This document shows, piece after piece, positions 1-239 of a DNA stretch of 239 nucleotides (positions are counted from its first letter, which is position 1; each line of letters begins with the position of its first letter). The stretch is from Escherichia coli (lineage in GTDB: Bacteria; Pseudomonadota; Gammaproteobacteria; Enterobacterales; Enterobacteriaceae), in assembly GCF_003334385.1 (NCBI RefSeq), contig NZ_QOWN01000224.1; one strand, written 5' to 3'. The translations under genes were made by a program, and so were the position numbers. Under the pieces are notes generated by a model, which worked only from the letters and a program-made list of their open reading frames with translations, was not told the DNA's origin and made no database searches.

Positions 1-41
1 GCAATAATGTATGTTCCGATGCTGTAAATTTCCCCGGGTAC
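1..41 (-). other. Start of non-collagenous C-terminal region ([13 protein letters not shown]...), continuing beyond the window
   Basis: Gly periodicity is lost after GRL. Residues become hydrophobic/aromatic (V, I, Y) and codons shift to AT-rich (GAA ATT TAC AGC ATC GGA ACA TAC ATT ATT). No stop codon before the window edge. Confidence 0.6.
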
Positions 42-239
42 CAGCCTTCCGGTTGGCCCTTGTGGTCCCTGTGGTCCCTGTGGTCCGGTTTTACCATCCA
101 ACCCGGGCGGTCCCATCGGCCCTCGCCCTCCGGCAGGGCCCCGTGGCCCCGGAACACCCTGCGCCCCCGCTGGTCCCCTTTCACCTCGTGGCCCTGCCGG
201 ACCTGCCTTACCTTCCGCTCCGGCGGTACCATCCTTTCC
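1..239 (-). CDS. Collagen-like triple-helix repeat protein, internal fragment (partial at both ends; N-terminal side beyond position 239, C-terminal side beyond position 1)
   Basis: Reverse complement read in the frame whose first codon is complement(237..239) translates without stops as [79 protein letters not shown] (79 codons plus 2 bases). Gly occupies every third position for 22 consecutive triplets, which is the defining collagen signature. The plus-strand open frame is a low-complexity shadow of this. Confidence 0.8.
42..239 (-). other. Collagenous (Gly-X-Y)n domain: 22 uninterrupted triplets, 66 codons
   Basis: Codons 1-66 of the minus-strand frame. Pro is at X in 11 of 22 triplets and at Y in only 2 (GVP, GPP). 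Charged residues K, D, E, R are frequent. No interruption of Gly periodicity. Confidence 0.8.
60..86 (-). repeat. 9-bp tandem repeat, 3 copies, encoding (Gly-Pro-Gln)3
   Basis: Plus strand reads ttgtggtcc / ctgtggtcc / ctgtggtcc at 60-68, 69-77, 78-86. On the coding strand these are GGACCACAG, GGACCACAG, GGACCACAA; the only difference is a synonymous third-position change (CAG vs CAA). The adjacent unit at 51-59 (GGGCCAACC, GPT) is a diverged fourth copy. Confidence 0.85.

Follow-up and report, generated by a model that had tools for sequence, protein, structure and literature searches.

The window, by which we mean the whole 239-nt stretch of Escherichia coli DNA analyzed here, has its coding sequence on the minus strand. 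A regular protein is obtained only from the minus-strand frame that begins at position 239; its translation is an unbroken run of Gly-X-Y triplets from position 239 to position 42 that then passes into non-collagen sequence. The preliminary description of the window had not named the coding strand; the CDS lies on the minus strand in every annotated homologue. The features discussed below are as follows, with coordinates counted along the given strand.

42..239, minus strand: collagen-like (Gly-X-Y) coding sequence with which the second collagen region ends; the translation comprises 66 residues, or 22 triplets (written (Gly-X-Y)x66 in the feature list), and the region corresponds to Pfam Collagen (PF01391) on the homologue L001.
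1..41, minus strand: beginning of the C-terminal domain, which is on the receptor-binding side and is not collagen-like; 13 protein letters.
58..87, minus strand: 9-nt tandem repeat, (Gly-Pro-Gln)x3, detected by the repeat finder, of which relatives have 1-3 copies.
190..201, minus strand: 5' arm of the inverted repeat in the mRNA (UCCGGCAGGGCC), overlapping Gly-Pro-Ala-Gly-Pro (codons GGT CCG GCA GGG CCA, 203-189), with a 2-nt offset from the codon frame.
141..189, minus strand: 49-nt loop, coding, 17 protein letters.
129..140, minus strand: 3' arm in the mRNA (GGCCCUGCCGGA), consisting exactly of the codons GGC CCT GCC GGA for Gly-Pro-Ala-Gly (codons 140-129).

As judged from its sequence, the gene to which the window belongs encodes a side tail fiber with a collagen-like stalk from a lambdoid prophage of E. 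coli. In BLAST searches of phage records and complete E. coli genomes, the window matches tail-fiber genes of lambdoid phages and prophages, and 18 phage and E. coli records carry an annotated tail-fiber CDS on the same strand, described either as "tail fiber protein" or as "prophage tail fiber N-terminal domain-containing protein". The homologous genes follow gpJ, and sometimes lom, and are followed by a DUF4376 tail-fiber assembly gene. Only 38 of 5,426 complete E. coli genomes contain a match to the window, at 106 places in all. It is 100% identical to segments of two IMG/VR prophage contigs from a single genome (L101:1044-1282 and L102:3540-3778), both of which have an identical 1,482-nt ORF, encoding 493 aa, between gpJ and the DUF4376 gene; the whole fiber gene is present twice, in identical form, on two different prophage contigs of this IMG genome (643348545). 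The 493-aa protein matches the tail fiber protein family PHROG 366 (E = 1.8e-126) and has the same N-terminus as L001, in which Pfam identifies, in order, the prophage tail fiber N-terminal domain PF08400 (PfN, E = 2.4e-42), collagen PF01391 at residues 135-264, the phage tail fiber repeat 2 PF03406 (Pf2, residues 272-313, E = 8.6e-16), and again collagen PF01391 at residues 323-423. PfN and the first collagen region are no more than about 30 residues apart, and Pfam gives no match to PF06820 (PfC) on L001. Along the protein, PfN is followed by collagen, the Pf2 repeat, collagen again, and the C-terminal domain. Long ORFs are also present on the opposite strand, at 28-239 of the window and at 1054-2184 of L101 (376, 230, and 223 aa), but these are probably not genes; they are to be expected because the reverse complement of DNA encoding Gly-Pro-X is likewise poor in stop codons and rich in Pro and Gly.

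Related collagen-like proteins of EHEC and other E. coli prophages (EPclPs) have been described as trimeric, collagen-stalked, and similar to side tail fibers (Ghosh et al. 2012, PMC3368898). The gene resembles the EPclC type in having PfN (PF08400), two Gly-X-Y regions separated by Pf2 (PF03406), and no PfC (PF06820), in a length that for this type is about 480–520 aa with relatives differing by multiples of three residues, and in the short stretch of about 30 residues between PfN and collagen, where the PCoil region is often missing in EPclC proteins (PMC3368898). That work is concerned with proteins, and nucleotide-level inverted repeats are not mentioned in it (PMC3368898). The putative assignment to EPclC rather than EPclD is made by domain order only. 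A similar arrangement is found in phage lambda, where stf comes after J (and lom) and is followed by the tail-fiber assembly gene tfa. The C-terminal domain of lambda Stf is nevertheless unlike that of the window gene, and Stf is not known to have long collagen-like regions. Both proteins have the domains PfN and Pf2 (PMC3368898). Outside phages, Streptococcus Scl1/Scl2 and Legionella Lcl are likewise encoded by Gly-X-Y repeats that gain or lose copies through slippage. These are unrelated proteins, however, and the sub-threshold matches to the NCBIfam models SclA, SclB, and Lcl (129 bits against a curated cut-off of 325) reflect composition only.

Within this coding sequence, window positions 129-140 (TCCGGCAGGGCC) are the exact reverse complement of positions 190-201 (GGCCCTGCCGGA), with a spacer of 49 nt, which bears out the perfect 12-bp inverted repeat reported in the preliminary description, its coordinates, and its sequences. 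The repeat finder extends the match imperfectly to 18 nt (arms 129-146 and 184-201), of which 16 positions (89%) are complementary. It had further been proposed that both arms encode Gly-Pro-Ala-Gly. This holds exactly for 129-140, whereas the arm at 190-201 is shifted by 2 nt from the GPAG codons: the second motif, GGT CCG GCA GGG, occupies 203-192, and the arm reads T-CCG-GCA-GGG-CC, i.e. (G)PAG(P). The idea that GGN-CCN-GCN-GGN is intrinsically near-palindromic proved sound. Since CC is the complement of GG, and GC is complementary to itself, the reverse complement of this string is N-CCN-GCN-GGN-CC, and therefore 8 of the 12 positions are complementary in any such pair of motifs, forced by the amino acids, with the four wobble bases opposed to each other. 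In the extended arms, where the peptide GPAGPRG stands opposite PRGPAG, the non-wobble positions all pair, as do 4 of the 6 wobble positions.

These properties account for the repeat in a simple way. The mRNA encodes G-P-A-G-P-R-G and then, 20 codons further on, P-R-G-P-A-G. Gly codons (GGN) are complementary to Pro codons (CCN), and in Ala (GCN) as well as Arg (CGN) codons the first two bases form a self-complementary pair. If GGN-CCN-GCN-GGN is reverse-complemented and read with a shift of one base, the result is therefore again Pro-Ala-Gly-Pro. In both motifs, codon positions one and two thus pair automatically and wobble opposes wobble, and with the four central wobble pairs that match in the window lineage (T-A, G-C, A-T, and G-C) there are 12 perfect pairs. 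About one in four wobble pairs matches by chance, and the gene offers about 124 motif pairings, so that one perfect case is a chance expectation.

How unusual the repeat appears depends on the scale at which it is judged. Per 239-nt window, the probability that the longest perfect inverted repeat reaches at least 12 nt is 0.0028 in dinucleotide shuffles and 0.0026 under synonymous-codon permutation, and it rises to 0.14 when whole Gly-X-Y triplets are permuted. Among 154 collagen-like 239-nt windows from unrelated phage contigs a single one reaches 12, likewise through a GPAGP/GPAGP pair, and 7 of 546 non-collagen control windows do so; the collagen-like background consists of the unrelated proteins retrieved by a peptide search of IMG/VR, after its only true homologues, L019 and L020, had been set aside. 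The relevant scale is, however, that of the gene, because the repeat would have been flagged anywhere in it. When the 1,482-nt gene of the window itself is permuted synonymously, 17% of the permutations give a perfect repeat of 12 nt or longer (5% with a loop of at most 100 nt), and for the longer homologues L001 and L002 the corresponding figures are 35% and 60%. The same gene contains 124 register-compatible pairs, defined as 12-nt pairs in which the non-wobble positions are all complementary. Zero, one, two, three, and four wobble matches occur in 45, 47, 24, 7, and 1 of them, compared to a binomial expectation of 41, 52, 25, 5.3, and 0.42 at the observed match rate of 0.242. For L001, the counts are 112, 118, 54, 12, and 1, with 0.75 perfect pairs expected and one seen. 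Nor is there any enrichment of inverted repeats over the synonymous null in the gene, as examined for L001 (k = 12, 1 against a null mean of 0.70) and L002 (2 against 1.72). The repeat is thus rare per window, yet it is expected somewhere in such a gene, and repeatedly in a genome scan. Indeed, repeats of this sort are recurrent in these genes, as two further perfect ones of 11–12 nt illustrate: one lies at gene positions 722-732 / 756-766 of L001 (CGGGGCCGGTT/AACCGGCCCCG, 23-nt loop) and another at gene positions 1340-1351 / 1642-1653 of L002 (CAACCCGGGCAG/CTGCCCGGGTTG, 290-nt loop).

The predicted folding gives a similar picture. When the 73 nt are cut out precisely at the arms, the RNA is predicted to fold at −46.8 kcal/mol, with z = −4.8 relative to shuffles and z = −3.0 relative to synonymous recodings, and the single-stranded DNA is predicted to form a hairpin of −21.5 kcal/mol (z = −4.05). 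These z-scores are inflated, because the ends of the segment were picked after the arms had been seen. For the mRNA of the whole window, the minimum free energy (MFE) of −96.9 kcal/mol is practically the mean of the synonymous permutations (−96.5 kcal/mol, z = −0.08), and z is −1.68 relative to dinucleotide shuffles; the MFE fold of the window keeps the predicted stem. GC-rich collagen-coding mRNA therefore folds about equally well whatever its wobble bases, and in the structure prediction that had been recommended as a check only the segment cut at the arms stands out. The stem is also predicted for L004, which has an 85-nt loop (z = −3.45), and the equivalent segment of phage PhiR12_1, which is without the 3' arm, folds no better than its shuffles (z = −0.64). 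Two further candidates were rejected at this level. An intrinsic (Rho-independent) terminator would be a short GC-rich hairpin with a T/U run behind it, whereas the loop here is 49 nt and neither arm is followed by a T run, and a scan of the window found no promoter-like site and, on both strands, no terminator-like site. A stimulator of −1 frameshifting would need a slippery heptamer (X XXY YYZ), and none is present in the mRNA upstream of the 5' arm, which reads ...GCG GAA GGT AAG GCA GG.

To see how the repeat is distributed among relatives, 25 homologous loci were compared, of which 18 come from phages in GenBank or E. coli in RefSeq and 7 from IMG/VR. The 5' arm is found in all 25, with C instead of T as its first base (a synonymous change from GGT to GGC) in L008, L011, L016, and L017, and the 3' arm in only 13, with a loop of 49 nt in 4 of these and 85 nt in 9. 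A perfect repeat with the 49-nt loop occurs in 4 of the 25 loci (L001, L099, L101, and L102), a perfect repeat with the 85-nt loop in 8, and an 11-bp version in 1, namely L008, where the change from GGT to GGC in the 5' arm is uncompensated although the partner arm is present. In the remaining 12 loci, the 3' arm has been replaced by a different Gly-X-Y module (GPRGLQGETGRQ..., GPRGLQGETGRQGPTG...) or removed by deletion. The isolated phages PhiR12_1 and PhiR5_1 belong to this group; PhiR12_2 and PhiR12_4 have the same blast profile as PhiR12_1 and were grouped with it by that profile alone. The repeat is carried by, among others, phage PhiR12_5. We found no relevant literature on the PhiR12 and PhiR5 phages, the nearest relatives in GenBank. 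In loci with both modules the arms do not differ, except for the T-to-C change in L008, and the DNA around them is nearly identical as well. A degenerate-codon search of IMG/VR and of 100,044 species genomes returned no diverged copies of the 3'-arm module: the 5 viral contigs found in IMG/VR have identical arms, so that they hold no synonymous variation from which covariation could be read, and the 3 matches among the species genomes come from the unrelated taxa Actinomadura, Glassbacteria, and Planctomycetaceae and presumably reflect chance. The comparison with homologues that had been proposed as a check accordingly favors a by-product of coding, in that the motif pair is dispensable, with the 3' arm absent from 12 of 25 loci, and the spacing varies freely.

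The difference in spacing belongs to a wider pattern of length and module variation in the collagen-like region. The window lineage, which also includes L001, L099, L101, and L102, has a 36-nt in-frame deletion of 12 aa (VGPAGPAGKTGP) that are present in most relatives. With its junction at window positions 141-155, this deletion shortens the loop from 85 to 49 nt, and it is bounded by the 7-nt direct repeat CGGGGCC (GGCCCCG on the plus strand, where the remaining copy is at 145-151). A direct repeat of this kind in DNA with a 9-nt period is an ordinary and typical substrate for replication slippage. The 9-nt (Gly-Pro-Gln) repeat at 58-87 varies likewise, with one copy in L015 and L016, two in L001 and L004, and three in L002 and L003. 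A mosaic module at about 88-146 (22 residues) has given way, in roughly every second relative, to a Gly-X-Y module of unrelated sequence (GPRGLQGETGRQGPTGPQGPTGEP) between nearly identical flanks, a pattern that indicates recombination within the collagen-like region. Finally, window position 142 differs non-synonymously from L001 and L099, with CGG (Arg) in the window and CAG (Gln) in the other two, and the change from Gln to Arg adds one pair to the extended imperfect stem.

Taken together, we consider it highly probable that the protein sequence gave rise to the inverted repeat as a by-product and that the repeat has no function of its own. The geometry of the codons, the number of repeats expected by chance, and the missing conservation are read directly from the data. 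For the predicted stem, we infer that it would have no effect in vivo, since translating ribosomes unwind such structures, recodings fold equally well, and phages without the arm have been isolated. The preliminary description had called a coding by-product the most economical explanation, and the wobble statistics, the missing 3' arms, and the window z of −0.08 relative to recodings all support this; its suggestion that the stem could influence recombination or translation gained no support.

A functional mRNA structure, which might slow the ribosome for co-translational registration of the trimer or protect the transcript, would have in its favor the strength of the predicted stem in the excised segment, its retention in the MFE fold of the window, and its formation across the longer loop of L004. 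We nevertheless think such a role very unlikely, in view of its absence from 12 of 25 loci, isolated phage genomes included, the two alternative spacings of 49 and 85 nt, the uncompensated change in L008, and a whole-window stability no greater than that of synonymous recodings; Rfam gives no match at E <= 1 on either strand, and frameshift stimulation is excluded by the lack of a slippery heptamer 5–9 nt upstream. Functional RNA stem-loops in coding regions, such as frameshift stimulators and cis-acting regulatory hairpins, share with the window a stable predicted stem within an ORF, but the window repeat has none of the conservation, slippery site, or Rfam match, and its arms, identical except in L008, show no covariation. 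It is just as improbable, in our estimate, that the repeat acts as DNA, with a hairpin or cruciform promoting slippage, deletion, or module exchange and so diversifying the fiber. The predicted single-stranded DNA hairpin would fit such a role, as would the 36-nt deletion inside the loop that sets the window lineage apart and the alternative-module boundary that adjoins the 3' arm. Short direct repeats in a 9-nt periodic sequence are sufficient, however, for the deletion and for the copy changes of Gly-Pro-Gln, inverted repeats are no more frequent in the gene than under the synonymous null, and cruciforms are poorly extruded from arms of 12 bp with a spacer of 49–85 nt. These collagen domains, moreover, generally vary in length by multiples of three residues, even where this repeat is lacking (PMC3368898).

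An origin of the arms by inverted duplication, or a role for them as sites of invertase crossover, is scarcely credible, even though the extended arms are complementary at 16 of 18 positions. Inverted repeats flank switchable tail-fiber segments in Mu, P1, and e14, so invertible tail-fiber segments do have precedents in other E. coli phages. Yet the loop has the same orientation in all 25 loci, the non-wobble complementarity is fully explained by the amino-acid motifs, and inverting the 73 nt, as assessed by eye from the sequence, would keep the frame open and destroy the Gly-X-Y periodicity. No invertase gene is annotated in the fetched neighborhoods, which contain J, Lom, the fiber gene, DUF4376, and YadA-like genes, with the pair of transposases inserted in PhiR12_1 (L005) as the sole exception in gene content. 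An invertible segment of the Gin/Cin/Pin type was rejected on account of the single orientation, the missing invertase, and the loss of Gly-X-Y that inversion would bring.

Some observations count against a by-product of coding: the probability of about 0.003 for such a repeat in a 239-nt window, the (inflated) z-scores of −4.8 and −3.0 for the 73 nt cut at the arms, the gain of one extended-stem pair through the Gln-to-Arg change at position 142, and the near lack of synonymous variation in loci with both modules, which leaves a small probability for a role restricted to one lineage. In the sub-lineage with the two modules, the stem (its loop shortened to 49 nt by the 36-nt deletion, its pairing extended by the Gln-to-Arg change) might form in mRNA or single-stranded DNA and modulate translation speed along the collagen-like stalk or the rate of slippage and deletion there, but we give this very little credence. 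If true, it would mean a lineage-specific effect on fiber length variation, and any role of the stem would be that of a minor lineage-specific modulator in one prophage tail-fiber variant. With a by-product of coding as the preferred reading, codon geometry and four chance wobble matches would explain all of a striking perfect inverted repeat in collagen-like coding DNA. For inverted repeats in Gly-Pro-Ala/Arg-rich coding sequences, the appropriate yardstick is thus a null of synonymous recodings of the whole gene, and when a segment is cut at the arms, the z-score of its fold overstates significance.

Some further observations were made in the course of the comparison. An unrelated phage collagen-like gene, L068, has near position 723 a 15-nt inverted repeat on GPAGP motifs (AGGACCTGCAGGTCC / GGACCTGCAGGTCCT), each copy of which is palindromic. 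In L010 (NZ_CP053284.1) and L013 (NZ_CP196679.1), the tail-fiber gene is annotated as a broken pseudogene, and L010 has an in-frame TAG within the Gly-X-Y run (GP*GP). Just downstream of the fiber-assembly gene, L002 (253-1368), L003, L007, L011, L013, L015, L016, and L017 carry genes for YadA-like proteins or proteins with a YadA C-terminal domain, and in this they resemble the Eib-carrying prophages (P-EibA) listed by Ghosh et al. for an EPclC protein (PMC3368898).
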